Notes: generated by a model from the letters alone, not told the origin. Positions 1 to 50,573 are shown, counted from the first letter of the stretch. The stretch is 64,000 nucleotides of DNA from Sulfurimonas sp. (GCA_026988245.1 JALSLR010000014.1:6660-70659); one strand, 5' to 3'. Numbers and translations are program-made.

Positions 1-118
1 GTTCAGTTTTTTGTGCTTTTAAGAATGTGTATTCTTTTTTGTAAGCTTGACTTAACTCATCTGCGTTGATTGATGTTAAAAACACTAAAGTCATTAAAAG
101 TATTTTAAAAATATTCAT
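1..118 (-). CDS. 5' part of a probable MotA/TolQ/ExbB-family (TtpC-like) protein, truncated by the window edge
   Basis: ATG at 118-116 overlaps the TAA of the DUF3450 gene (TAATG coupling). Reads MNIFKILLMTLVFLTSINADELSQAYKKEYTFLKAQKTE, a signal-peptide-like start. The product is inferred from the usual DUF3450-ExbB gene order. Confidence 0.55.
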   Translation of the reverse strand, partial: MNIFKILLMTLVFLTSINADELSQAYKKEYTFLKAQKTE

Positions 119-894
119 TATTTATCTCCTTGAAGTACTAGTGCATTTGGAAGTGTGAAAAAGCCTGTACGTATTTGTTTATTTAAGGCATCAAAAAGGG
201 AAAGTATCTCTTTTATATCATCTTCCTGTTTTGCAACTTTAGTTACAAAGTTATCAGATTCGTCTTCAGTTATATAACCAACTCTATTGTCTGGAGTTTT
301 AAAATAAAGCATAACTGTGCCTATTTTTGCTACATCTGCCAAGATATTTTTTGAGTCTATTTCGATGTTTTGTTTAAACAGACCGATTTCTTTTGTTAAA
401 CGTATATTGTCATCATAAGCGCTCCATAAAAGTGCTAATGCTCTTTCGCTCGTTATAAGTCCTTCATCTAAGTCGTCTTGTATTTTTCTAAGTGCACTTA
501 AACGTTCTTGCACCTTAAATGGAATTCCTTCTATGATGCTTGTTTCAAGTGCAGTTATGAGTTCCTCTAAAAGAGGTTTTAAAACTATATTACTTGTAGA
601 TGTGTTAGCAATTTGAACTTTAAGTTTTTCTAAATCAAGTTCTAATAATTTTATAGATGTTATTTTTCTATTTATCTGCGCATCACTATCTGCACTTTGA
701 AGTGCAAGTGACTTCATACTAGCTTTATAAGCATCTTTATTCTGATCTATTTGTGTATATAATGACTCTACATCTGCGCGTAACTTCATGATGGCTTTAA
801 CCATATCTTCATCGTTTGATGCTAAGAGATTTGTGCTTATAAGCGTAGTACAAAGTGCTAAAGCAATAAGGCTAATTTTAGGTGTGTTAAACAT
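118..894 (-). CDS. DUF3450 family (TtpB-like) periplasmic coiled-coil protein of a TonB system
   Basis: Signal peptide, long coiled coil, motifs 'GIPFKVQERL' and 'VAKIGTVMLYFKTPD'. GGAG RBS. Confidence 0.8.
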   Translation of the reverse strand: MFNTPKISLIALALCTTLISTNLLASNDEDMVKAIMKLRADVESLYTQIDQNKDAYKASMKSLALQSADSDAQINRKITSIKLLELDLEKLKVQIANTSTSNIVLKPLLEELITALETSIIEGIPFKVQERLSALRKIQDDLDEGLITSERALALLWSAYDDNIRLTKEIGLFKQNIEIDSKNILADVAKIGTVMLYFKTPDNRVGYITEDESDNFVTKVAKQEDDIKEILSLFDALNKQIRTGFFTLPNALVLQGDK

Positions 895-924
895 CTTTAC
901 TCCATGTGTGATTTTATTTATGGA

Positions 925-978
925 AGTATAGAATTGAGGGGTTACGTGGATGTTGCACTAAAGTTACGCTTTGGTAAC
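925..978 (-). promoter_or_regulatory. Pho-box promoter of the DUF3450/TonB operon
   Basis: On the minus strand, GTTAC/GTAAC/GCAAC/GTAAC at 11-bp period (974, 963, 952, 941), then 10 bp, then TATACT (925-930). Confidence 0.8.
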
Positions 979-1008
979 ATTGTAGTCTTTATGTCATTTA
1001 GAAGTAAT

Positions 1009-1035
1009 ATTTACTCCCTGTAAGAGGGAGTAAAT
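1009..1035 (-). terminator. Stem-loop downstream of the lipoprotein gene
   Basis: ATTTACTCCCT-gtaag-AGGGAGTAAAT, an 11-bp perfect stem 17 bp after the stop. U-tract is weak. Confidence 0.6.
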
Positions 1036-1051
1036 AAGGGTTAGCCTAGGG

Positions 1052-2224
1052 CTAGAATAATTCGAAAATCGCTTTAGCAGAACCTGAAGAGTCAGTTTCA
1101 TTTTCAGTGATTTTGTATTCACTTGTACCAGTTAAGCTTACATTTGTGAAAGAGATGTTTGCAATGTCAGCAGTACCTTGAGTATAGATAGCACCTGAAG
1201 TGTTACTTGCATTGTTTTCAACAGTTACATCAGTAAAGTGACCACCGATTCCATCTTTTTTGAAGAAGATTCCACCATCTTTGATTGCGTTAGTTCCTAA
1301 ACCGATATAAACATTGTTAAAATCAGCAGCAGTTGATCCACTCATCTCAATTCCTGAGTTACCTGAACCTTGATTGTTAATTACCATGTTAGTAACAGTA
1401 CCAGAGTATCCATCATCGATGTCAAAAAAGTCATCAGTACAACCCGTAAGAGTAAGGTTAGACATATTTACAGTACCACCCCATGCTTCGATACAGTCAT
1501 CATCAGATAAATCAACAGTGATATCAGTGATAGTAGTCCCTGAACCAACACCTACAAGTGAAAGACCATTGATCTCTTTATCTTGTTCCATAGTGATACC
1601 AGAGTTTAAGATTTTAACATATGTAAGGCTACCAGAGTTATCTGCTAAATTAGATGTACCAGCAACAAACTGAGTATCAACTTCATATGGGGCTACTTGA
1701 GAGTTAGCAGCATTTCCGATGATAGTTAAACCACCCCATTGACCAACAGCAGCAGTTCCACCATCAACAGCAGTTTCAGAAGTAAATACAATAGGGTCAG
1801 TTGCATTACCATCAGCTATAATTTTAGCTCCAGTATTTACTACCATATAAGATGTACTAGTACCAGTTCCAGCTTTACCAGCTACAGTTGTACCAGGGTT
1901 GATTGTTAAAGTAACACCGCTATCAACTATAACTAAACCACTAAGGATATGAGTAACATTATTATCCCAAGTTGCATCAGCTGTAATGTGACCTGTATGA
2001 GTTGTTTTTGTAGCTGGTGCAATTGGTGTACCAGTGATTCTTGAACCTGTAGCATTAGCACCACCAGTGTTTACACTTGAAAGTAGGTCAGCAGATTGTT
2101 TAACCTCATAGTTAACATCAGGAACTACAACAGCAGCAGTTGTGTCATCATTAGAACAACCTGTTGACATCATTACTACAGAAGCAGTAAGTAAGCTAAG
2201 AACGATTTTATTTTTGATATTCAT
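1052..2224 (-). CDS. Pho-regulated lipoprotein with probable right-handed beta-helix (pectin-lyase-like) fold, function unknown
   Basis: Lipobox MSTG-C. Motifs 'GQWGGLTIIGNA', 'EINGLSLVGVGSGT', 'DDCIEAWGGTVN', 'DDFFDIDDGYSG'. Gly/Asn/Thr-rich repetitive beta-strands. Confidence 0.75.
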   Translation of the reverse strand: MNIKNKIVLSLLTASVVMMSTGCSNDDTTAAVVVPDVNYEVKQSADLLSSVNTGGANATGSRITGTPIAPATKTTHTGHITADATWDNNVTHILSGLVIVDSGVTLTINPGTTVAGKAGTGTSTSYMVVNTGAKIIADGNATDPIVFTSETAVDGGTAAVGQWGGLTIIGNAANSQVAPYEVDTQFVAGTSNLADNSGSLTYVKILNSGITMEQDKEINGLSLVGVGSGTTITDITVDLSDDDCIEAWGGTVNMSNLTLTGCTDDFFDIDDGYSGTVTNMVINNQGSGNSGIEMSGSTAADFNNVYIGLGTNAIKDGGIFFKKDGIGGHFTDVTVENNASNTSGAIYTQGTADIANISFTNVSLTGTSEYKITENETDSSGSAKAIFELF

Positions 2225-2253
2225 TTTTGAATCTCCGTTTTTAAATTTGACGA

Positions 2254-2307
2254 AGTATAAAGCTAGGATGTTACTAAATTATTCTCGCTTGGTGACAAGA
2301 TGGTAAC
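2254..2307 (-). promoter_or_regulatory. Pho-box promoter of the lipoprotein gene
   Basis: On the minus strand, GTTAC (2303), GTCAC (2292), a degenerate unit (2281) and GTAAC (2270) at 11-bp period, then 10 bp, then TATACT (2254-2259). Confidence 0.75.
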
Positions 2308-2334
2308 ACTATCTTTGTCGTTTAAGATAAGTCG

Positions 2335-2371: not shown

Positions 2372-2839
2372 ATGAAAAAAATAATCTTAGCATCATTGGT
2401 TGCTATGAGTATAGTTGTATCTTCAGTATCCGCTGAGGGCTTAAAAATAGGTTTAGGTCTAAGTGCAGGGCAGTCCTCGTTACAAGAGGCTCCAACCATT
2501 AAGGTGCCACTGGATTTTGACTTTGGACTAAGAGTTGAGCCTGAGTTAGGCATAACAGATGAGTATCAAACTCTTGGTGTTGGTGCTTACTATAACGTAA
2601 TGCAAAAAAAAGAAGTAGATATCTATGCTGGTGGACGTTTAGGATACACGATAGATTCAAATGCTAATGGTATTACACTTCAAGCGCTAGTGGGTGCTGA
2701 GCATTATTTGGTAGAAAATGAACTTTCAGTAGCATTACAAGTTGGTTTAGAGGTTATGAGTGGAGACAGATATAAAGGTACAAACACCCCTGGTTTTGGA
2801 ACAACTGGAAGTGTAGTCCTTAGATACTTTTTATTTTAA
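2372..2839 (+). CDS. Small outer-membrane beta-barrel protein (8-stranded OmpW/OmpA-like)
   Basis: Signal peptide, alternating amphipathic beta-strands, C-terminal 'VVLRYFLF' aromatic end. Confidence 0.7.
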   Translation: MKKIILASLVAMSIVVSSVSAEGLKIGLGLSAGQSSLQEAPTIKVPLDFDFGLRVEPELGITDEYQTLGVGAYYNVMQKKEVDIYAGGRLGYTIDSNANGITLQALVGAEHYLVENELSVALQVGLEVMSGDRYKGTNTPGFGTTGSVVLRYFLF

Positions 2840-2876: not shown

Positions 2877-3536
2877 CTATTTATGAAAGTTACCACCTAC
2901 TTGGATGTATACTAGGAGATTTGCTATGCTTGAGGCTCGGTCTGCTATTTTACCGCTTTTTCTTAGGGCTCTTAACATTCTGTAAAACTTTTCAAATTGA
3001 TTTAATTCTTTTGCCATATCATGAAGATTTGCTTCAACCATCTCGTAAAGGTCATCAGTTTTACTCTCCTCTATAAGTACATCGTTGTAACACTCTTGTA
3101 TCTCGTCAATGTCATCTATATTTATCATATTTATAGTAGTTTTGATAGCTTTTACTGTAGATGATTGCATAGGGAGTGCATACTCTTTGATAGTTTTCGT
3201 ATCTACATCTGCACATACATCTGTGAAACCTTTTATGAAACTTCTTGTGTTCGCACAGGCGCGTGAGAGTTCATTGGTTATTTTTAAGTAAGCTACAACG
3301 CGTCTTAAATCTCTTGCTTCTGGAGTATATAACGCTAAAACTTTGATGATTTCATTGTCGATTTCATCAGTTTTAGAGCTAATATTTTTGATGAACCCCT
3401 TAGCATCATGAAACTTTTGAGCATCACAATCTTCTAGTGCATCTAGGATCAGTTCATTAGATTTTAATAATCCATCACCTATATCTGTAACCTTGCTCTT
3501 TATGAGTTCTAAGTTGTCTGTAAAATTTTGTAACAT
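2877..3536 (-). CDS. phoU: Phosphate signaling/transport accessory protein PhoU
   Basis: 'YTPEARDLRRVVAYLKITNELSR', 'DDLY', 'KIADRASSIA'. Directly after pstB. Likely start is ATG 3536 (ORF track start 3545). Confidence 0.88.
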   Translation of the reverse strand: MLQNFTDNLELIKSKVTDIGDGLLKSNELILDALEDCDAQKFHDAKGFIKNISSKTDEIDNEIIKVLALYTPEARDLRRVVAYLKITNELSRACANTRSFIKGFTDVCADVDTKTIKEYALPMQSSTVKAIKTTINMINIDDIDEIQECYNDVLIEESKTDDLYEMVEANLHDMAKELNQFEKFYRMLRALRKSGKIADRASSIANLLVYIQVGGNFHK

Positions 3537-3537
3537 A

Positions 3538-4320
3538 TTATCCAAATCTCCCTGTTATGTAGTCTTCTGTTTGTTTCTCTTTTGGATTTAAAAAGATACT
3601 TTCTGTTTTATCAAACTCTATGAGATCACCTAGGTACATAAATGCTGTATAGTCACTGATACGACTAGCTTGTTGCATGTTGTGTGTCACTATGGCGATG
3701 CTAACATCTTTTTTAAGTTCAACAAGTAGCTCTTCAATAGCCCCTGTACTTATAGGGTCAAGTGCAGAAGTTGGCTCATCAAAGAGGATAACTTCTGGTT
3801 TGACTGCTACCGCTCTTGCTATACAAAGACGTTGTTGTTGTCCACCAGATAAGCCCATAGCTGATTTGTCGAGTCTATCGTTTACTTCTTTCCAGAGTGC
3901 ACCATCTTTGAGAGCTTGTTCTACTCTGCCTGCAAGTTCACTCTTGTTTTTGATACCAGCAATTTTAAGACCATAGGCTACATTATCGAAGATGCTCATA
4001 GGAAAAGGTGTAGGTTTTTGAAATATCATCCCAACACGTTGACGAAGCTCTATAAATTCGTTTTCTTTTTTAATATCTAAGATATTCTCCATTTTTTGTG
4101 TTGAATCGTTAAGTAAGTCTATAGTACCTTCATATCTGTTTCCAGGGTAGAGGTCATGGATACGGTTCATACTTCTAAGTAGTGTAGATTTACCACAACC
4201 ACTCGGGCCTATAAGGGCAGTGATTTTATTTTTGCGTATCTTCATGTTTATATTTTTTAATGATGGGTGACTAACATTTGGGTATGTAAATGAAAAGTCT
4301 TGGATGTTCATTACTGGCAT
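3538..4320 (-). CDS. pstB: Phosphate ABC transporter ATPase PstB
   Basis: GPSGCGKST, '[21 protein letters not shown]', [14 protein letters not shown], 'DEPTSALDP', 'DYITGRFG'. Confidence 0.97.
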
Positions 4321-4346
4321 TATCTTTGTTCCTTAAGTTTAGTATT

Positions 4347-5153
4347 TTATCTTTTTTTATTTCTAGTAAAGTATCTACCAGTTAAGTTTATGGTTAAAAC
4401 CAATACAGTAAGTATAAATGAAGCAGCCCATGCTAGGTCACGGCTTGATTCTTCTGGCTCGTTCGCTAGGTCGTAGATGCTCACAGTAAGTGATGGAAAA
4501 GACTCACTCAAGTCAAGTGAGAAGTAGTTACTTGTCTCAGATGTAAAAAGCAGGGGTGCAGTTTCACCGATGATGCGCGCAAAGGCTAAAAGGATCCCTG
4601 TCATGATCCCAACTTTTGCTGCTTTTATAACGATATCTAGTATAACTCTGTATTTTGAAGCACCAAGTGCTATTCCAGCTTCACGGAGTTCACGAGGGAC
4701 GAGTGAGAGCATATTGTCCGTTGTGTTGATGACGATAGGTAGCATCATGATGCTAAGAGCAATCGCCCCTGCAAAACCACTCGTTCCACCAGATGGTACT
4801 ACTACGATAGCATAGACAAAGGCACCTATCACTATAGAAGGTGCTGACATCATTATGTCACTAAGGTTTCGGATGAGTCCTGCATATCTACTACGACCAT
4901 ACTCTTGAAGGTAAATCCCTGCAACCATACCAAGAGGTATACCAATAGCTGCAGCGATACCTGCTAAGATGAACTGTCCAACGATGAGGTTACGAAGCCC
5001 ACCATCAATGAGGTCATTTAAAAAGAGACTAAAGTGAAATGAACCAAGACCTTTTATGAAAAGTGTTATAAGAATCCAAGCTAAAAAGCCTAGCCCTATA
5101 AGTGCTGAGAGAGTTGAGAGTCCAAGTACTATTTTGTTTATCAATAAACGCAT
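4347..5153 (-). CDS. pstA: Phosphate ABC transporter permease PstA
   Basis: 'AGIYLQEY', 'APSIVIGAF', 'LREAGIALGAS', 'ARIIGETAPLLFT'. Confidence 0.95.
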   Translation of the reverse strand: MRLLINKIVLGLSTLSALIGLGFLAWILITLFIKGLGSFHFSLFLNDLIDGGLRNLIVGQFILAGIAAAIGIPLGMVAGIYLQEYGRSRYAGLIRNLSDIMMSAPSIVIGAFVYAIVVVPSGGTSGFAGAIALSIMMLPIVINTTDNMLSLVPRELREAGIALGASKYRVILDIVIKAAKVGIMTGILLAFARIIGETAPLLFTSETSNYFSLDLSESFPSLTVSIYDLANEPEESSRDLAWAASFILTVLVLTINLTGRYFTRNKKR

Positions 5154-6139
5154 TATTTAGCCCCTCTTAAAAAGTAAAGTTTTGCGATGCTAATGATGGC
5201 AAAGCTAATGATAAAAAGTATGAGTGCAAGATAAAACAGTGAACTTTCCCCAAGACCAGCTGCCTCGCCGAAGTTATTAGCCATCGCTACAGGTATAGAA
5301 ATAGTTGGGTCTGTAATAGAACTCGGTAGTGTAAAAATAGAACCTATCAAAAATGCAACTGCCATAGTTTCGCCTAAAGCACGACCAAGTGCTAAGATGA
5401 TACTTCCGATAATACCTACTTTTGAGTATGGAAAGATGATATCTTTAATAACCTCAAATTTTGTAGCACCCATTGCGTAAGCACTTTCTTTAAGGACATC
5501 GGGAGTTGTATTCATAGAGTCTCTCGTGATAGCTGCCATAAATGGTAGTATCATTACTCCAAGAACTAAACCAGCGGTTAAAAGCGATACTTGATAGCCA
5601 CCCACTAAGTCAGCAACTATAGGAGCAAAATAGTACAGTCCCCACATACCAAAGATGATGCTAGGAATAGCTGCAAGAAGTTCTATAGCTATCCCAATAG
5701 GGTAGGCGATGTTTTTAGGTGCAATTTCTGCTAAAAAGACTGCTATTCCCATAGCGATAGGAAGCGCAAATACTAGAGCTATGATAGTGCTTAGCAATGT
5801 TCCGACTATGGGAACAAGCCCCCCATACTCAGTAAATGTATCTTTTACATCTTCATCAAAGAGCATAGTGTCTGCCTCAGCAGGCATATCATCCTCATCA
5901 TCTAGCATCATCATATCATCTGAAGCACTGCTATCATCCATATCCATATCCATATCCATATTGGCATTTGGATTTGAGAGTGAAATTTCAGTATTCCAAT
6001 TTGGGTTTACTATAAAACCAAGACCAAACTCATCTATAGAATCTTTAGATGCTAAAAACAGAGTGATAAAGATACCGATAAGTATGACAAATACTAAAGA
6101 AGCACTTGAAAAAGCAAGATTACGAAAGATTTTTTCCAT
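5153..6139 (-). CDS. pstC: Phosphate ABC transporter permease PstC with a Met/Asp-rich insertion
   Basis: 'GTLLSTIIALVFALP', 'IELLAAIPSIIFGMWG', 'ALGRALGETMAV'. Confidence 0.95.
   Translation of the reverse strand: MEKIFRNLAFSSASLVFVILIGIFITLFLASKDSIDEFGLGFIVNPNWNTEISLSNPNANMDMDMDMDDSSASDDMMMLDDEDDMPAEADTMLFDEDVKDTFTEYGGLVPIVGTLLSTIIALVFALPIAMGIAVFLAEIAPKNIAYPIGIAIELLAAIPSIIFGMWGLYYFAPIVADLVGGYQVSLLTAGLVLGVMILPFMAAITRDSMNTTPDVLKESAYAMGATKFEVIKDIIFPYSKVGIIGSIILALGRALGETMAVAFLIGSIFTLPSSITDPTISIPVAMANNFGEAAGLGESSLFYLALILFIISFAIISIAKLYFLRGAK
5937..5960 (-). repeat. (TCCATA)4 in-frame microsatellite encoding MDMDMDMD in pstC
   Basis: Four perfect 6-bp units read directly. Confidence 0.9.
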
Positions 6140-6171
6140 TGCCTATAACCCCATTTAAATTTAATTTTGGG

Positions 6172-6203
6172 ATTATAGAGAAATTTGGTTACATAGTGGT
6201 TAC
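6172..6203 (-). promoter_or_regulatory. Internal Pho-box promoter of pstCAB-phoU
   Basis: GTAAC-N6-GTAAC (6199, 6188), then 10 bp, then TATAAT (6172-6177). Confidence 0.85.
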
Positions 6204-6205
6204 AA

Positions 6206-6289
6206 TGAGATTCTGAATCAAGTTCAGAATGACGGATGATTGTTGAGAATGACGGGGAGTCGTCATTCTAGGCTTGACCTGGAATCTAC
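6206..6289. repeat. REP/REPIN-like element (two inverted palindromic units) between pstS and pstC
   Basis: AGATTCTGAATCAAGTTCAGAATGAC (6208-6233) and inverted GTCATTCTAGGCTTGACCTGGAATCTAC (6262-6289, GTAG end on the minus strand). An extra GAATGACG copy lies between them. Confidence 0.8.
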
Positions 6290-6309
6290 TTTAAAAAAAG
6301 AAACTTAAA

Positions 6310-7314
6310 CTACTTAATACCTTTAGTATCCCAATAAGCTCTTATTTTAGATGTTAAAGTATCTGGAAGTGGAACAAAACCTAAACTTTTAGCTATCTCT
6401 TGACCATCAGTATAACACCAGTTATAAAATTTTGTTACTTTTTTGTCCATTACCGGTTTTTCAGCAGGCACAAGGATGAAAGTAGCAGCAATCATAGGGT
6501 AAGATTCAGCTCCACTAGGGTCAGCGATGATAGCGTAAAAATCTTTTTTAGGATCAAGTGTAGCTTTTGCAGCTGCTATTTGAAAAGATTTAAGAGTTGG
6601 TTTTATGTATTTACCTGCTTTGTTTTCAACACTAGCCATCGCTATGTCATTATTCTTAGCATCAGCGTAGTCGATATACCCAACAGTGTATTTACCTTGT
6701 TTAAGAAGTGCAGCTACTCCAGAGTTCGTTTTTCCACCAATATGTTGGTTCCCTGGCCAGTTAAGTGACTTTTTAGCACCATATGCTTTTCTCCAACCCT
6801 TGCTTACTTTAGAAAGGTAGTACGTAAAGTTATAAGTAGTTCCACTTCCATCTGCACGGTGTACAAAAGTTAACTCTTCATGTGGAAGTTTAAGATCTGT
6901 ATTTGATGCTACAATCACTGCATCATCCCAGTATTTTACCTTACCAGCTGCTATAGCTACGATAGCTTTACGAGAAAGTTGTAAGTTTGTTATTCCTGGA
7001 ATGTTATAACCCATAGTGATAGCTCCAACTACTGCTGGAAACTGATAAAGTTTGTTTTGTTTGAGTGTTTTTGGGCTTAAGGGTTTGTCGGTACCTGCAA
7101 AATCAACAGCTCTAGCTTTTGCATCCTTAATACCCTTAGATGAACCTTTTTTAATATAATCAACTTTTATACCTGTTTCTTTATTATAAGCTTTTATCCA
7201 TTTTTGGTAGACACTGTATGGAAATGATGCTCCACTTCCTTTAAGTACTTCGCCTGCATATATAGTAGTAGCAAGCATTGTTGTTACTAATGCTGTTGTA
7301 ATGATTTTGTTCAT
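6310..7314 (-). CDS. pstS: Phosphate ABC transporter substrate-binding protein PstS
   Basis: 'GSGASFPY', 'GSSKG', 'DFAGTD', 'HRADGSGTTYNFT', 'YPMIAATF'. Confidence 0.96.
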   Translation of the reverse strand: MNKIITTALVTTMLATTIYAGEVLKGSGASFPYSVYQKWIKAYNKETGIKVDYIKKGSSKGIKDAKARAVDFAGTDKPLSPKTLKQNKLYQFPAVVGAITMGYNIPGITNLQLSRKAIVAIAAGKVKYWDDAVIVASNTDLKLPHEELTFVHRADGSGTTYNFTYYLSKVSKGWRKAYGAKKSLNWPGNQHIGGKTNSGVAALLKQGKYTVGYIDYADAKNNDIAMASVENKAGKYIKPTLKSFQIAAAKATLDPKKDFYAIIADPSGAESYPMIAATFILVPAEKPVMDKKVTKFYNWCYTDGQEIAKSLGFVPLPDTLTSKIRAYWDTKGIK

Positions 7315-7343
7315 CTAACTTCCTTTAATATTTTTATGGCAGA

Positions 7344-7387
7344 AGTATAAAGTCTCTTGGTTGCACTTTGGTTACAAGTTAGGTTAC
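7344..7387 (-). promoter_or_regulatory. Pho-box promoter of pstS
   Basis: On the minus strand, GTAAC (7383), GTAAC (7371), GCAAC (7360), then 10 bp, then TATACT (7344-7349). Confidence 0.85.
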
Positions 7388-7392
7388 AAAGT

Positions 7393-7435
7393 GTAATCAA
7401 AATGTAACAAATGTGTAATATCATTTCGCTATCAA
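7393..7435 (+). promoter_or_regulatory. Divergent Pho-box array for the porin gene
   Basis: On the plus strand, GTAAT/GTAAC/GTAAT at 7393, 7404, 7415 (11-bp period), then 10 bp, then a weak -10 TATCAA (7430-7435). Confidence 0.6.
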
Positions 7436-7457
7436 ACAAACATCAAGGGATAAATAG

Positions 7458-8723
7458 ATGAAAAAAATAATTATATCAACTATAGCTACTCTAGCTATTG
7501 CCTCTGTTAGCTTAAGTGCTAATGAAATTACTATTATGGATGAAAAATCTCCAGAATTTATGCTTGGGAAACAAACACATATAAATATGAAGTTTGTTCC
7601 TGATGACAACAAAGATATGTGGCTCAAAGCTGGTGTACGGATTCAAGGTACCTTTGAAAATGTCAATACTGACTATAATGGTAATAAAACAAATACTAAT
7701 CTCAGTGATGCTTATCTTCGCCGTGTTCGTTTTGAGGTAGCTGCTGGTTTTGGTCATGGTGTCTCTTTTACTATGGATGTTCGTAATGACAAATCTAACT
7801 ATGGTATAGAAAATGATGAGGGGACATTTAATGTAGGTGATGCTTATGTTAAAATTAAAAAACCATTTGATACCTCTCTTGTAAACTTTAAACTTTACCG
7901 TGCAAAGATAGATGTTTCTCGTACTGAAACTGTAAAATCAGCTCGTGTCATAGCATACGATAGACCTTATATCGCTGATATAGCAGCGCAGTACATCTCT
8001 TTTAACCGTCGTGGAACTAATGTTCAGATGTATGGAGATTGGGATAAGAAAATTCATTATCAAATTGCAACAGGTGCAGCTACATCTCCTAATAAAATTT
8101 ATGATGCAGCTGGTGATAAAGCATCGTCAGATGCTATAGAGCTTTCAAAACAAAGTTATTTCTTTGGTGGGAAAGTGGTACTTTCACCATTTGATGGTTG
8201 GGAAGAGACTTCAAGAACTGAAACATATTTTGGACAAGGGAAACACTTTGAAGTTGGTGCATCATACTGGTCAGTTCCTCAGTTAGCAGGAACTATTGGT
8301 AATGGAAGCGATTTTGATGTGAATCGTGATTTAATCAATCTTGAGGTTTCAGCACATTACAAAGGTCTTTTTGTACAAGCAGAATACTTTGACTTTAGTA
8401 ATGTTGTAAAAGACTGGAATCCAACTACTGGTGGACTTGAAACAAGTGATTCTACTGGTTGGTATGTAACAAGTGAATATGTTATTGCAGAGTGGGGTTT
8501 TGTAGCTCCTTTTGTACGATATGAAACGCAAGATAGATATGAAGCTTTAGCTGATGCTACAGTGACATCTGCTCTTGGTGGTATCAACTGGTACTTAAAA
8601 GGAAATACTATAAAAGCTGGAATTGTGTATCAACAAGACCACTTCGGTGTTGATGCTACAAGCAATGGCGGACAAGCAAAAGATGTTCAAAAAATCAAAG
8701 TAACTTCTCAGTTTTTCTTCTAG
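7458..8723 (+). CDS. Phosphate-selective porin (OprO/OprP-like)
   Basis: Signal peptide, 'YLRRVRFEV', 'DAYVKI', 'RGTNVQMYG', 'GINWYLKGNTIK', terminal Phe. Divergent from pstS. Confidence 0.8.
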   Translation: MKKIIISTIATLAIASVSLSANEITIMDEKSPEFMLGKQTHINMKFVPDDNKDMWLKAGVRIQGTFENVNTDYNGNKTNTNLSDAYLRRVRFEVAAGFGHGVSFTMDVRNDKSNYGIENDEGTFNVGDAYVKIKKPFDTSLVNFKLYRAKIDVSRTETVKSARVIAYDRPYIADIAAQYISFNRRGTNVQMYGDWDKKIHYQIATGAATSPNKIYDAAGDKASSDAIELSKQSYFFGGKVVLSPFDGWEETSRTETYFGQGKHFEVGASYWSVPQLAGTIGNGSDFDVNRDLINLEVSAHYKGLFVQAEYFDFSNVVKDWNPTTGGLETSDSTGWYVTSEYVIAEWGFVAPFVRYETQDRYEALADATVTSALGGINWYLKGNTIKAGIVYQQDHFGVDATSNGGQAKDVQKIKVTSQFFF

Positions 8724-45577: not shown

Positions 45578-47506
45578 ATGATGGAAATGTTTTTATATAT
45601 AGCACTATTTTCACCATTAGTAGGCTCTTTGTTTGCTGCATTATTTAGCATGTCTCCAAAGACACTATGGGCTGGAGTAGTTCCAAGTATGTTGCTTGGA
45701 CTATCTCTCATTAGTTCAACTATCCTTTTGTTGATGGTTCTTAAAACTGGGACTACTCTACATGTCGAGATGATGACATGGATGGCTACTGGAGATTTAT
45801 ATATCCCTTTTGGCTTCGTAGTTGATCAAGTTTCTATTACTATGATGATGGTTGTAACTTTAGTTTCAACTGTTGTGCATGTGTATGCTATAGGTTATAT
45901 GGATCACGATAAAGGCTTTAATCGTTTCTTTGCATGGTTATCAGCTTTTGTTTTTTCAATGATGATACTTGTTATGAGTGATAACTTTGCAGGTCTTTTC
46001 ATTGGTTGGGAAGGTGTTGGTCTTTGTTCATGGGGTCTTATTGGATTCTGGTATCATAAAGAGAGTGCTACTTGGGCAGCAAATGAAGCTTTTATTATGA
46101 ATCGTATCGCTGACCTTGGTATGCTTATCGGTATCTTTTTAATTTACTGGAACACAGGAAGCCTTCAATATGACGTAGCATTTCCTGCTTTTGCAGCTCT
46201 AGATACATCTACTTTGACTTGGATAGGTATCTTCTTATTTGTTGGTGCTATGGGTAAATCAGCTCAGTTCCCACTTCATACTTGGCTTGCAGATGCGATG
46301 GAGGGACCAACTCCTGTTTCTGCACTTATTCACGCAGCTACAATGGTAACGGCTGGTGTATACTTAGTAGTACGTTCAAATGAACTGTTTGCACTTATCC
46401 CTAATGTAGGTTTATTTATCGCGAGTCTTGGTGCTTTTGTTGCAATTTTTGCAGCTACTATGGCACTAGTAAATCGTGATATTAAAAGAGTTATCGCTTA
46501 CTCTACACTTTCGCAGTTAGGGTATATGTTTGCAGCTGCTGGTCTTGGTGCTTACTGGGTTGCGTTGTTTCACCTTATGGCTCATGCATTCTTTAAAGCA
46601 CTGCTGTTCCTTGGTGCTGGTAATGTTATGCATGCTATGCATGATGAACTAGATCCCTTTAAGATGGGTGGACTTGGGAAGCATATGAAAGCTACTATGA
46701 TTCTTATGACTTTAGCATCAGTAGCCTTAGCTGGAATCTTTCCACTTGCAGGGTTCTTCTCAAAAGATTTGATTCTTGAGGTTGCTTTTGTGGATCATCA
46801 TTTCCTTATCTATAGTGTGCTTCTTTTAACAGCTGGTTTAACTGCATTTTATTCATTTAGAATTATTGCGCTTATTTTCCATGGGGAAGATAGACATACT
46901 GCACTTGGTTTTCACCCACACGAAGCGTACAAGTTTATGTTGTGGGCTGTATCACCTTTAGCTATTTTAGCTGTAATTGCAGGATTTACTTTAAAGGGTG
47001 GATACTTTGAGATGGTAACAATGCTTCTTCCATCGACTGAGTACCATGTACATAACCATACTACGTACTGGATTATGACGATAGGGACACAGCTATTTGT
47101 ACTTATAGCAATCTTCTTTGCCTATAAAAAATATATAGCTAAAGGGATTAAAGTTCCTGATGGTACAAGTAAAATGGAAAATAGTTTTGGATATAAATTA
47201 CTTATCAATCAGTACTATATTCCATACTTTTATGAAGAGTATCTAGTAAAACCATACAGAGAACTTTCTACTGTATTGTGGGAAAAAATTGATATGAAAG
47301 TTGTTGATGCAACTGTTGATGGAATTGCTAATGTGTTCTACTCTACAGGTGAGGCAACAAGAGGGATGCAAAGTGGAAATTTATCTACTATGCTTAAATG
47401 GATGGTAGCTGGCTTAATTGGACTATTATCATTAGCTGTGGTTTTTGGACTAGCGGCTAGACACTCTGATAGTATAGTTTCTATACTATCTGGTTTAGGA
47501 GTTTAA
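45578..47506 (+). CDS. nuoL: NADH-quinone oxidoreductase subunit L
   Basis: 'GWEGVGLCSW', 'GKSAQFPLHTWLADAMEGPTPVSALIHAATMVTAG'. Confidence 0.97.
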   Translation: MMEMFLYIALFSPLVGSLFAALFSMSPKTLWAGVVPSMLLGLSLISSTILLLMVLKTGTTLHVEMMTWMATGDLYIPFGFVVDQVSITMMMVVTLVSTVVHVYAIGYMDHDKGFNRFFAWLSAFVFSMMILVMSDNFAGLFIGWEGVGLCSWGLIGFWYHKESATWAANEAFIMNRIADLGMLIGIFLIYWNTGSLQYDVAFPAFAALDTSTLTWIGIFLFVGAMGKSAQFPLHTWLADAMEGPTPVSALIHAATMVTAGVYLVVRSNELFALIPNVGLFIASLGAFVAIFAATMALVNRDIKRVIAYSTLSQLGYMFAAAGLGAYWVALFHLMAHAFFKALLFLGAGNVMHAMHDELDPFKMGGLGKHMKATMILMTLASVALAGIFPLAGFFSKDLILEVAFVDHHFLIYSVLLLTAGLTAFYSFRIIALIFHGEDRHTALGFHPHEAYKFMLWAVSPLAILAVIAGFTLKGGYFEMVTMLLPSTEYHVHNHTTYWIMTIGTQLFVLIAIFFAYKKYIAKGIKVPDGTSKMENSFGYKLLINQYYIPYFYEEYLVKPYRELSTVLWEKIDMKVVDATVDGIANVFYSTGEATRGMQSGNLSTMLKWMVAGLIGLLSLAVVFGLAARHSDSIVSILSGLGV

Positions 47507-47509
47507 TAG

Positions 47510-49063
47510 ATGTTAGATCATATCTTATCGATTTTAATTTTCTTTCCAGCACTCGCAGCAGTGCTTGGTTTTGTAGTTCACAAAGATAGTATGCGTGCTT
47601 ATGGTGTTGCTGTTGCAACTATTGAGTTTGTGCTAGCTTTATGGCTTTGGTTCGCCTTTGATAATAGTGTATCTGGTATGCAGTTTATGGAACACTTACC
47701 TCTCATTCCAGCATTTGGAATTAACTATATTTTAGGTGTAGATGGTATTAGTCTATTTATAGTTATCTTAGCAGCATTTTTTACAATGATTGGGATAGCT
47801 TCACTAACAGATACTCCAAATGTTAAAAATATGATTATTACCTTGTTATTTTTACAGATGACAATGGTTGGTGTGTTTTTAGCACTTGATGCAATGGTCT
47901 TTTATGTGTTTTGGGAACTTTCACTCGTGCCAATGCTATATATCATTGGTGCATGGGGTGGTCCTAAGCGTATATATGCATCTGTTAAGTTTTTCTTATA
48001 TACATTTGCAGGTTCACTTGTGATGCTAGTGGGTGTACTGTTTATGGCATACTTTTATTATCAAGCAACTGGTCAATGGTCTTTTGCAATACTTGATTGG
48101 TATAGACTTATACTTCCATTTTCTTTTCAGTTATGGTTATTTGCTGCATTTTTTATCGGGTTTGCTATTAAGGTTCCTATGTTTCCATTTCATACTTGGT
48201 TACCATATGCGCATGGTCAGGCACCAACGATTGGTTCTGTGATACTTGCTGCAATTTTGTTGAAAATGGGTACATACGCATTTATCCGTTTTTCACTTCC
48301 ATTGTTTCCAGATGCGTCAACATATTTTATGTATCCTATAGCTATTTTAGCGATAATTATGATTATATACACAGCTATGGTAGCATATGCTCAAAAAGAT
48401 GTGAAGCAAGTTGTTGCTTACTCTTCGGTATCTCATATGGGTGTTATCATACTTGGAACTTTTGCTTTAAATGTTGAAGGTATCTCAGGAAGTATTTTCC
48501 TTATGATTGCGCATGGTGTGGTTTCAGGTGCACTCTTCTTACTTGTAGGTGTTATCTATGATAGACGTCATACGAAGCTTATGAGTGAGTTTGGTGGTTT
48601 AGCATCTGTCATGCCTAAGTTTGCTACTATCTTTGGTATCATGATGATGGCTTCTGTTGGTTTACCTTTAACAATTAACTTTGTGGGTGAGTTCTTATCA
48701 CTACTTGGTTTTTATCAGCAGTCACACATCTTAACTCTTTTAGCAGGAATTGCTATTATAGTTGGTGCTATCTATATGTTAGCAGCCTACAAAAAGATGT
48801 TTTTTGGTGAAGTTACAAAAGAGGAAAATAAAAATCTTCCAGATGTAAATAAACGTGAATTGATTGCGCTTATCCCTTTAGTAATTATTACTATTTGGTT
48901 AGGTATATATCCTAAACCTATTTTAGCACCTATCAACACAAGCGTAGAATCAGTCGTGCAACTCATGCATGACAAAGCTGTTACTGATGATGCTAAAGCA
49001 AGAATCCCTAACCTTATTCAAGGTGTAGAGATTACAAGAACTACGCAAAAGGGAGGTCACTAA
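47510..49063 (+). CDS. nuoM: NADH-quinone oxidoreductase subunit M
   Basis: 'FWELSLVP', 'KVPMFPFHTWLPYAH', 'LLKMG'. Confidence 0.96.
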   Translation: MLDHILSILIFFPALAAVLGFVVHKDSMRAYGVAVATIEFVLALWLWFAFDNSVSGMQFMEHLPLIPAFGINYILGVDGISLFIVILAAFFTMIGIASLTDTPNVKNMIITLLFLQMTMVGVFLALDAMVFYVFWELSLVPMLYIIGAWGGPKRIYASVKFFLYTFAGSLVMLVGVLFMAYFYYQATGQWSFAILDWYRLILPFSFQLWLFAAFFIGFAIKVPMFPFHTWLPYAHGQAPTIGSVILAAILLKMGTYAFIRFSLPLFPDASTYFMYPIAILAIIMIIYTAMVAYAQKDVKQVVAYSSVSHMGVIILGTFALNVEGISGSIFLMIAHGVVSGALFLLVGVIYDRRHTKLMSEFGGLASVMPKFATIFGIMMMASVGLPLTINFVGEFLSLLGFYQQSHILTLLAGIAIIVGAIYMLAAYKKMFFGEVTKEENKNLPDVNKRELIALIPLVIITIWLGIYPKPILAPINTSVESVVQLMHDKAVTDDAKARIPNLIQGVEITRTTQKGGH

Positions 49064-49064
49064 T

Positions 49065-50573
49065 ATGAGCCCAGTAAATGTTTCTATGGAGTCACTCAAC
49101 TTAGTGACTCTTGCACCAATGTTAATTCCTATCCTTGGCGCTTTATTAATTTTAATCGTTGACCTGTTTAAAGGTGGACTAGATAAAAGCTTATATGTAA
49201 TGTTAAGTTTACTCTTTCTTTTCATCGACTTTAATGCCCTGTTAAATTCTGCAGGAGTATTTACACAAAGTGGAACGATTATGGGTGTATTTGATGTGAT
49301 GCTCATAGATGGTTTAGCTATCATCTCTCAGTTCATCATTGTTGGTGCATCTATGCTTTTTATTCCACTAGCACTTACGCATAAGCGTTTTCATGAGTTC
49401 GCATACCCTGAGTTCTTTGCACTTTTCTTATTTATGATTGGTGGATTCCAATTTATGGTTTCAACTGATAACTTAATTCTTGTTTTTGTAGGTCTTGAAA
49501 CTGCTTCTTTAGCACTTTATACACTTATAGCTATGCACAACCGTGAGAAAAGTTTTGAAGCAGCTATCAAGTACTTTACTATGGGTGCCTTAGCTGCAGG
49601 TTTTTACTCTTTTGGTTCAATGGTGTTTTATGCACTTACTGGCAGTATAGAGATTAATCAAATCGCAGCGGTATTAAATGCTAATAATTATGCAGATATT
49701 GGCTTCGTACTTATAGCAGTTGTATTTATGTTAGCATCATTTGGTTTCAAACTCTCAATGGTACCATTTCACACTTGGACACCAGATGTTTATGAAGGTT
49801 CTTCCGCTGCACTTGCTGGATATATGTCAATCGTACCTAAGATAGCTGCCTTTGTTGTATCTATGCGTATCTTTGAATTTTTAATTCATAGTGGTGTAGT
49901 TTGGCTTGAAGTAGTCCTTTACATCATGGTTGTAGTAACGATGACCGCTTCAAATATTTGGGCACTTGTGCAAACAGATGTAAAGCGTATGCTTGCATAC
50001 TCATCAATCTCTCATGCAGGTTTTGTTATGGCTGCTATCCTCATAGGGACGACACAGTCTAACTCAGCACTGTTTTTGTACTGGATACTTTTTAGTTTTA
50101 CTAACCTAGGATCATTCTCAATGTTATGGATAAGTAGACAAAAAAATCTTCCTGCACATCAAAGTTCAGATCATTCATTTAGTAAATTCTCTGGTATGAT
50201 AAAAACATCACCAATGGCAGCATCTATTATGGCACTTTTTATGTTAAGTTTAGCGGGTCTGCCTCCTTTTGCTCTATTTTGGGGTAAGATGTATATGATT
50301 AGTTCAGCTGTGACAGGTGGGTATACTGTTTTAGCACTAATTATGGCACTTAACTCAGCGATAGCTGGGTACTATTACTTAAAACTTATAGTATATATGT
50401 TTATGATGGAGCCACATAGAGAAAGTCTTGGTGGAGAGGTATATGTATCAAACGCAACTGGTGCACTTAAAACTATCATTGGTATTGCGACACTAGGAAC
50501 TATATTTGCTTTCTTAACAGTAAACCCAATACTTGAATTTGTGACAACATTCGTTTACAATAGCGGGTATTAA
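49065..50573 (+). CDS. nuoN: NADH-quinone oxidoreductase subunit N
   Basis: 'EAAIKYF', 'FKLSMVPFHTWTPDVYEG', 'KRMLAYSSISHAG'. Confidence 0.96.
   Translation: MSPVNVSMESLNLVTLAPMLIPILGALLILIVDLFKGGLDKSLYVMLSLLFLFIDFNALLNSAGVFTQSGTIMGVFDVMLIDGLAIISQFIIVGASMLFIPLALTHKRFHEFAYPEFFALFLFMIGGFQFMVSTDNLILVFVGLETASLALYTLIAMHNREKSFEAAIKYFTMGALAAGFYSFGSMVFYALTGSIEINQIAAVLNANNYADIGFVLIAVVFMLASFGFKLSMVPFHTWTPDVYEGSSAALAGYMSIVPKIAAFVVSMRIFEFLIHSGVVWLEVVLYIMVVVTMTASNIWALVQTDVKRMLAYSSISHAGFVMAAILIGTTQSNSALFLYWILFSFTNLGSFSMLWISRQKNLPAHQSSDHSFSKFSGMIKTSPMAASIMALFMLSLAGLPPFALFWGKMYMISSAVTGGYTVLALIMALNSAIAGYYYLKLIVYMFMMEPHRESLGGEVYVSNATGALKTIIGIATLGTIFAFLTVNPILEFVTTFVYNSGY

Follow-up and report, generated by a model that had tools for sequence, protein, structure and literature searches.

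How do bacteria bring across their outer membrane those phosphorus sources that exceed the size limit of porins? This passage is largely obscure. For iron, B12 and glycans, the TonB-dependent route is well understood; TonB systems under Pho control, such as tonB4 of Pseudomonas aeruginosa, are without known cargo. The question is raised by a locus of the sulfur-oxidising bacterium Sulfurimonas sp. at the left end of a 64,000-nucleotide stretch of DNA (GCA_026988245.1 JALSLR010000014.1:6660-70659; hereafter the window, corresponding to C14:6660-70659, C14 being its contig). Here, a gene for a DUF3450 (TtpB-type) protein and a gene for a lipoprotein of the Beta_helix_4 family lie next to phosphate transport genes. 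We see an even chance that the lipoprotein and the operon opened by the DUF3450 gene constitute a Pho-regulon, self-energised outer-membrane import module, with the beta-helix protein as partner, for a phosphorus source.

The DUF3450 gene (118-894, minus strand) opens a TonB operon that runs on, beyond the window, over C14:1-6659 and then contig C98. It encodes a protein of 258 amino acids with a signal peptide, matched by PF11932 (E 9e-28; 97.6 bits for a cut-off of 32.6) and belonging to a divergent subtype. Its stop codon shares 1 nt with the ATG of the following gene (TAATG), which encodes a TtpC-like long MotA/ExbB protein of 437 amino acids (MotA_ExbB at residues 306-422, E 1e-28) and of which the window holds the 5' end (the first 39 codons; 1-118, minus strand). 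An earlier note on this DNA had made its hypothesis depend on the presence of exbB, exbD and tonB, and of a receptor gene, to the left of the window. All of them were found there on the same strand, tightly packed behind the DUF3450 and TtpC-like genes: ExbB (197 amino acids), ExbD (134 amino acids, E 2.5e-29), TonB (204 amino acids; TonB_C, E 1.3e-20), a TPR protein occupying the TtpD position directly after tonB (425 amino acids, several TPR-family matches) and, as last gene of the operon, an Oar-type TonB-dependent receptor of ~1050 amino acids. This receptor carries an N-terminal CarboxypepD_reg extension (PF13715/PF13620, residues 133-220) followed by a Plug domain (237-327); its barrel was recognised by TIGR01782 over residues 215-848 with 117 bits, below the cut-off of the model, and its orthologue in locus L036 is annotated as OMP_b-brl_3. 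It had no sequence relative in the PDB. The receptor gene runs off C14 and ends on C98. The terminal regions C14:1-525 and C98:1-525 overlap inside this gene, one inverted relative to the other, and differ at 6 of 525 bp (~99% identity); the assembly break probably results from strain heterogeneity, C98 carrying the locus onward. The lipoprotein gene (1052-2224, minus strand; PF28492, 390 amino acids) lies upstream of the operon. Just past its stop codon there is an intrinsic-terminator-like hairpin with a 12-bp stem (1008-1036, minus strand), which makes the lipoprotein a transcription unit apart from the DUF3450 operon.

Despite being transcribed separately, lipoprotein and operon travel together. 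Among 26 informative related loci, 24 contain one to four tandem lipoprotein genes directly upstream, and on the same strand, of the seven-gene operon (DUF3450-TtpC-ExbB-ExbD-TonB-TPR-receptor); in two Sulfuricurvum-type loci the lipoprotein gene adjoins the receptor end of the operon instead. Among the 151 Campylobacterales genomes sampled, 8 encode the full-length lipoprotein and 8 the divergent DUF3450 subtype (85-108 bits), with 7 genomes encoding both; the eighth divergent DUF3450 gene sits at a contig edge. A canonical DUF3450 protein (215-272 bits) was present in 11 further genomes, and two carriers of the cassette, including the genome studied here, have one as part of a second system; in these 151 genomes the lipoprotein was never found alongside a canonical system. 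The co-occurrence of the lipoprotein with its operon is thus near-obligate. The second system of this genome (DUF3450-TtpC-ExbB-ExbD-TonB, C35:69358-72974, DUF3450 with 241 bits) lacks the lipoprotein, and the genome-wide Pho-box scan described below found no match within it. In another genome (G060, C25:22631-24658 and 47375-49402) the lipoprotein/DUF3450 pair occurs twice with identical scores, inverted and 23 kb apart; either the cassette underwent a large inverted duplication or this is an artefact of assembly.

The hosts of the cassette belong to the Campylobacterota and to the Desulfobacterota (Desulfobacteraceae, Desulfonema, Desulfosudaceae, Desulfosalsimonadaceae and Desulfobulbales). 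For every component, sequence identity between the two phyla (55-64%) is not below the values observed within Campylobacterota, indicating that the block has moved between phyla. The cassette was present only in this genome among seven sampled from the genus and is therefore accessory; its GC content gives no sign of recent acquisition. A more distant member of the lipoprotein family, 32% identical, has its gene in Flavobacterium immediately behind that of an Oar-type receptor, with a PhoBR-like two-component system adjacent, so that the pairing of receptor and beta-helix protein spans three phyla.

A first line of evidence connecting this cassette with phosphate comes from its promoters. As the earlier note had proposed, the DUF3450 and lipoprotein genes each possess their own Pho-type promoter with the geometry of those of pstS and pstC: in all four, TGTAACC-like 7-mers are repeated at an exact spacing of 11 bp and the proximal half-site starts exactly 16 nt ahead of a TATA[AC]T motif. 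In the DUF3450 promoter (925-979, minus strand) the half-sites are TGTTACC (979-973), CGTAACT (968-962), TGCAACA (957-951) and CGTAACC (946-940), followed by the -10 element TATACT (930-925). That of the lipoprotein gene (2254-2308, minus strand) has TGTTACC (2308-2302), TGTCACC (2297-2291), a degenerate copy (2286-2280) and AGTAACA (2275-2269), also with a TATACT -10 element (2259-2254). On the same strand, pstC has two half-sites (6204-6187; -10 at 6177-6172) and pstS five repeats (half-sites at 7376-7359 plus distal ones; -10 at 7349-7344). The promoter of the phosphate-selective porin gene, on the plus strand, shows the same geometry, with half-sites TGTAATC, TGTAACA and TGTAATA (7392-7420). 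None of the Pho-box promoters of the locus has a -35 hexamer, as would fit activator-dependent promoters.

We evaluated the specificity of this design by scanning the whole 2.19-Mb assembly (120 contigs) with a consensus built only from the pstS and pstC promoters, in order to avoid circular reasoning. The scan retrieved 154 dimers with three mismatches or fewer, of which five had the full geometry, with TATA[AC]T in register, when ~0.3 were expected: those of pstC, pstS, the DUF3450 gene, an operon starting with a type II secretion system (T2SS) pseudopilin gene, and a nadE-like gene. Only 10 sites in the genome had at most two mismatches, among them the distal box of the lipoprotein gene and the porin box. 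The geometry being far commoner than expected by chance, the promoter observation is real and not accidental. The T2SS site, outside the window (contig C4, ~11256, minus strand), consists of the Pho-box-like sequence CGTCTCCaaaaTGTAACC followed by TATAAT in exact 16-nt register, 30 nt upstream of the GspG-like pseudopilin gene that opens the operon. A Pho-controlled T2SS would parallel the Hxc system of P. aeruginosa and could release or export Pho-induced proteins, for instance the beta-helix lipoprotein.

Related loci exhibit a similar signal. Of 17 Campylobacterota loci, 10 have a dimer with three mismatches or fewer at a distance of 58-89 nt ahead of the DUF3450 start, compared with ~0.13 expected from the genome-wide density of such sites; the other loci of this phylum mostly show the Sulfurovum form TGTTTCC-N4-TGTTAT, and many lipoprotein genes of relatives are likewise preceded by similar boxes. 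In one Desulfosudaceae genome, where the window PstS gave no match as query and the pst genes were located via the pstC model, two pstS promoters contain a different 11-bp-spaced repeat, YCTMAY. Only nine YCTMAY dimers occur in the 5.5 Mb of this genome. Three belong to pstS promoters and one (CCTAACataagTCTAAC) precedes the first lipoprotein gene, a cross-phylum regulatory signal that is suggestive only.

The genes that follow the receptor also point to phosphate sensing. On C98 they encode three tandem OmpR/PhoB-type response regulators (C98:1181-3268) and a histidine kinase (C98:1181-4641 with the regulators, locus L035), an EAL-GGDEF protein and glnA. The three regulators are ~49% identical to each other and rank among the four best matches to the PhoB model in the genome, including the best one; the single kinase, with a periplasmic Cache-like sensor domain, is matched best by the PnpS and PhoR models. 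Ahead of the first regulator gene, a gap of 60 bp contains TGTAACCcaaaTGACACT-N9-TAAACT with the 16-nt register kept, the signature of an autoregulated Pho regulator, and four Sulfurimonas-like loci have an orthologue of this first regulator behind the receptor. Downstream of the receptor gene of Sulfurovum sp. CS9 come a gene for a 436-amino acid protein, preceded by a Pho box, one for a phosphate transporter of the PHO4 family and one for a PhoB-like regulator, with pstSCAB-phoU and a further regulator 10 kb beyond. In the L036 genome, an OlsF-like acyltransferase gene precedes the cassette and genes for a regulator and PstS follow it.

Two of these neighbours deserve a comment of their own. 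The 436-amino acid protein is predicted to be exported (L027:19532-20842, the same as L044:966-2276 of CS9) and has equivalents in L014, L021 and L032. Its gene is preceded by a strong Pho box, TGTAATCattTTGTAACC-N9-TATAAT; the protein had no family match and no detectable relation to the porin O/P of the window, and may be a new Pho-regulated outer-membrane channel. The L036 acyltransferase (L036:8103-9815), encoded directly upstream of the lipoprotein gene, is a bifunctional protein with an OlsF-like domain set (Acyltransf_2, Acyltransferase and Acetyltransf_5). OlsF functions in the synthesis of ornithine lipids, which are free of phosphorus. If the L036 protein makes such a lipid, the same island would hold another phosphorus-sparing function.

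What kind of protein is the lipoprotein? Its signal peptide ends in a lipobox (...VVMMSTGC23) whose Cys23 is kept in at least 90% of 60 homologues, and is followed by a Thr/Ala/Gly-rich tether of ~50 residues. Scans of Pfam and NCBIfam libraries that did not include PF28492 gave no match, and precomputed annotation assigns PF28492 (Beta_helix_4) to the window protein and to all its listed homologues. An AlphaFold2 model based on the 60 homologues predicted with confidence the beta-helix fold that the earlier note had named: a right-handed parallel beta-helix spanning residues ~73-376 (predicted local distance difference test, pLDDT, 90; predicted template modelling score, pTM, 0.87). Successive rungs bear an invariant acidic ladder (D241-243, E246, D264, D265, D268, D270 and E293) adjoining the invariant K322 and a QWGG motif. 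The Asp-rich motifs mentioned in that note as possible Ca2+ ligands are indeed present, the first of them reading DDDCIE in place of DDCIE and the second DDFFDIDD. The mature protein contains 41 Asp and Glu against 12 Lys and Arg, for a net charge of about -29.

The family is large. More than 1000 close homologues, nearly all of them unnamed, occur in Sulfurovum, Sulfurimonas, Sulfuricurvum and Desulfobacterota, and a full profile search recovered 9402 sequence clusters, many of which correspond to proteins of 1000-2400 amino acids with several copies of the domain. Some distant members carry a type IX secretion system sorting tail, LTD (lamin-tail) or TSP_3 domains, or RTX Ca-binding repeats, which mark them as extracellular or surface proteins; the domain fusions seen among these distant members were restricted to such markers of extracellular proteins (the sorting tail, LTD and TSP_3). 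A protein of 1474 amino acids that appeared to fuse a receptor with a beta-helix turned out, on inspection, not to do so.

In the window, the cassette adjoins phoU, pstB, pstA, pstC and pstS (2877-7314, minus strand) and the phosphate-selective porin O/P gene (Porin_O_P, 7458-8723, plus strand; 7392-8723 with its half-sites), so that the phosphate neighbourhood reported in the earlier note was recovered by gene mapping over 2877-8723. At residues ~55-100, PstC (5153-6139) contains an acidic insertion rich in Met and Asp (MDMDMDMDDSSASDDMMMLDDEDD...), which, along with the strong acidity of the lipoprotein, hints at a locus handling cation-complexed phosphate. The region between pstS and pstC (6140-6309) contains repeated GTCATTC units and inverted repeats (GAATGACGACTCCCCGTCATTC ... 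CCGTCATTCTGAACTTGATTCAGAATC), located between pstS and the pstC Pho box, which could be an attenuator or terminator dividing pstS from pstCAB-phoU. A further gene, divergent from that of the lipoprotein, encodes a small outer-membrane beta-barrel protein of 155 amino acids (2372-2839, plus strand). It has a sigma-70 promoter with extended -10 (TTGTCG-17-TG-TATAAT, 2315-2343) devoid of Pho-box geometry and is not conserved in the related loci; it probably lies outside the module.

Several known systems can be compared with this cassette. The closest motor is that of Vibrio TonB2 and TonB3, with the gene order TtpB-TtpC-ExbB-ExbD-TonB-TtpD (PMC6957404). The six components and their order are the same here, including a TtpC of ~440 amino acids (437), and the TonB3 operon also has a dedicated outer-membrane receptor and is probably not iron-regulated. 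However, in contrast with TonB2, the promoters of our cassette have Pho boxes and not Fur boxes. Its receptor, of Oar type, is encoded at the 3' end of the operon, its DUF3450 protein is divergent (97 bits versus 215-272 for canonical ones), a beta-helix lipoprotein gene accompanies the operon, and its hosts are Campylobacterota and Desulfobacterota. The motor is thus of TonB2/TonB3 type by content and order, not by regulation. In P. aeruginosa, exbB2-exbD2-tonB4 (PA0693-0695) belongs to the PhoB/sigma-VreI regulon and is uncharacterised (PMC7035377). Compared by description and not by homology, the two are similar in that a TonB motor apparently serves phosphate starvation and is clustered with Pho-induced envelope or secretion genes, but the P. 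aeruginosa motor comprises three genes, without TtpB, TtpC and TtpD, and neither a beta-helix lipoprotein nor an Oar-type receptor has been described with it. The pairing of a Pho-induced lipoprotein with a TonB-dependent receptor has a precedent, again by description and not by sequence or fold, in Caulobacter ElpS, a surface lipoprotein induced by phosphate starvation, encoded beside the receptor CC0171, co-occurring with it across genomes and linked to phosphate mobilisation (PMC2996285); ElpS differs in being released by a T2SS-dependent protease and in having a constitutive receptor.

The receptor itself shares with Myxococcus Oar and with SusC the CarboxypepD_reg extension, the Plug, the barrel and a dedicated Ton system of its own. 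Oar is needed for the secretion of PopC, a soluble protease (PMC6434023), and thus works as an exporter, unlike what we propose here. SusC has as partner the TPR-like lipoprotein SusD, whereas the partner here is a beta-helix, and the SusC model TIGR04056 scored the receptor at only 33.5 bits, far below its cut-off of 368, so that we found no SusC/SusD pairing. Concerning the regulatory sites, we take them to be similar to the C. jejuni PhosS/PhosR boxes. Their TGTAACC half-site (TGTTTCC or TGTTACC in Sulfurovum) differs from those of E. coli PhoB and C. jejuni PhosS-PhosR, as does the presence of three tandem regulators with one kinase in place of a single pair. As in E. coli, the 11-bp direct repeats replace the -35 element and lie ~10 bp upstream of the -10 (reviewed in PMC4415409). 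Our full-text literature searches retrieved no link of DUF3450 systems or Sulfurimonas TonB genes to phosphate and no description of a cassette with this make-up. This TonB-dependent system therefore appears new in its partner protein family and Pho control, and mobile between phyla.

Taken as an importer, the module could work as follows. Under low phosphate, a PhoB/PhosR-type regulator, most likely one of the three encoded after the receptor gene and acting with the PhoR-like kinase, would bind the 11-bp-spaced TGTAACC repeats that stand in for the -35 element. Binding would activate, as two units, the lipoprotein gene and the DUF3450(TtpB)-TtpC-ExbB-ExbD-TonB-TPR(TtpD)-receptor operon, and alongside them pstSCAB-phoU and the phosphate porin. 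The six-protein TonB2/TonB3-type motor would use the energy of the proton-motive force to open the Oar-type receptor dedicated to it, presumably in the direction of import. The lipoprotein, an apparently obligate partner of the receptor, would be tethered to the outer membrane by its ~50-residue linker, probably exposed at the surface, and could capture or process cargo at the Asp/Glu ladder with Lys322, probably with the participation of Ca2+ or another cation. The cargo would most likely be a phosphorus source that the porin cannot handle because of its size or scarcity, for instance phosphate that is polymeric, bridged by cations or associated with minerals.

A number of observations weigh against this import model. 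Foldseek did place beta-helix proteins on top when the lipoprotein model was searched against the PDB, as the fold predicts, but all were generic (E of at least 1e-3, TM of at most 0.35), and a profile search of PDB sequences returned only noise. No enzyme family can thus be assigned, and any enzymatic or binding role is putative. The strong acidity of the lipoprotein implies that phosphorus-containing anions could be bound only with bridging cations, which disfavours direct binding of a polyanion. In a Desulfosudaceae locus (L025, ~8890) the first homologue has a signal/anchor and a Gly/Ser/Asn-rich linker without the lipobox Cys, so that lipidation is not universal in the Beta_helix_4 family. 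No phosphatase, nuclease, phytase or phosphonate gene occurs inside the cassette, and gene content therefore names no substrate. The regulators and the kinase score below the curated PhoB and PhoR cut-offs. The linkage of homologues to pho genes, on which the earlier note had also relied, was borne out by the conserved box upstream of DUF3450 in Campylobacterota and by frequent Pho-type neighbours, but pst genes are adjacent in only 1 of the 26 loci, which rules out pst adjacency as a conserved feature; porin O/P lies beside the cassette in one other, and in the Desulfosudaceae genome pst is 48 kb away. Finally, an Oar-type receptor can also serve protein export (PMC6434023).

This last point leads to the main rival explanation, that the receptor and its own TonB motor export the lipoprotein or lipoproteins across the outer membrane. 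Once outside, the lipoprotein would make phosphorus available, much as has been proposed for Caulobacter ElpS (PMC2996285), perhaps by removing Ca or Fe from phosphate in minerals or complexes; the freed inorganic phosphate would then enter through the Pho-regulated porin and PstSCAB. The Oar architecture, uncommon in Proteobacteria (PMC6434023), speaks for it, as do the one to four copies of the putative cargo gene that the cassette holds together with its own motor, its movement between phyla as one block, and the precedent of the Pho-induced ElpS, a surface lipoprotein that is released to the medium and whose gene adjoins one for a TonB-dependent receptor (PMC2996285). Moreover, the module includes neither a periplasmic binding protein nor an inner-membrane importer, and there is no known surface-lipoprotein exporter at the locus. 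Nevertheless, the cargo in the sole known case of export through a TonB-dependent transporter is not a lipoprotein, SusC-type importers have the same N-terminal architecture (PMC6434023), and designs in which a surface lipoprotein assists import as a partner are much more common; we thus consider export unlikely. No sequence feature tells import from export, and sequence alone cannot decide the direction.

Import of a cargo other than phosphorus is less probable still. The module might take up, under Pho control, a cation or cofactor for which need or supply shifts when phosphorus is limiting, be it Fe, Ca, some other metal or a metal chelate; the acidic beta-helix would then be a metal-binding partner of the receptor. 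This would agree with the charge of the lipoprotein and its invariant Asp/Glu ladder, with the odd Met/Asp-rich loop of PstC, and with the siderophores carried by Vibrio TonB2 systems of the same build (PMC6957404). We dropped the idea of Fur boxes, since the best matches upstream of the DUF3450 and lipoprotein genes (11-12 of 19 positions) coincided with the mode of random genome windows; in addition, the canonical DUF3450-TonB system of this genome covers ordinary TonB work and every neighbour recurring in relatives has a phosphate function, which makes metal uptake improbable here. Even less credit can be given to the beta-helix being a polysaccharide lyase, hydrolase or epimerase that targets the envelope of the cell itself or acidic glycans of the environment, with the receptor importing oligosaccharides in the manner of carbohydrate utilisation (CUT) or polysaccharide utilisation (PUL) loci and the phosphate link being secondary, via phosphorylated glycans or envelope remodelling under phosphorus stress. 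The nearest folds are phage tailspike depolymerases, PL3 pectate lyase, AlgE4 epimerase and GH28 enzymes, and the best NCBIfam model for the receptor is the Xanthomonas/Caulobacter subfamily of TonB-dependent receptors, tied to carbohydrate uptake. The acidic ladder beside an invariant Lys also presumably resembles the Ca2+-dependent beta-elimination sites of PL3 and PL9. Yet these fold matches are all weak, no sequence match to any solved enzyme was found, the hosts are mostly chemolithoautotrophs or sulfate reducers, and no sugar-catabolism genes accompany the cassette.

Under either the import model or its export rival, the implications may go beyond this locus. We suggest, tentatively and with more doubt than confidence, that the cassette represents an unrecognised class of phosphorus acquisition, horizontally mobile, under Pho control and powered by TonB, in which an acidic, cation-loaded beta-helix acts with an Oar-type receptor, or else a second TonB-dependent protein exporter. 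The beta-helix would then add to the SusD-like and TbpB-like proteins a new type of receptor partner, one that captures mineral-bound, cation-bridged or polymeric phosphate (candidates being polyphosphate, metal-phosphate complexes and phosphorylated polymers) for sulfur-cycling hosts of sediments and vents. The cassette is a compact, genetically testable unit of eight genes, with regulation readable from its sequence, and cultured strains such as Sulfurovum sp. CS9 carry it. It could reveal what the Beta_helix_4 family and the non-iron TonB3-like systems do and, if export is the true direction, would provide wider evidence for TonB-dependent protein secretion. It could also explain the phosphorus supply of chemolithoautotrophs and sulfate reducers living in sulfidic sediments.

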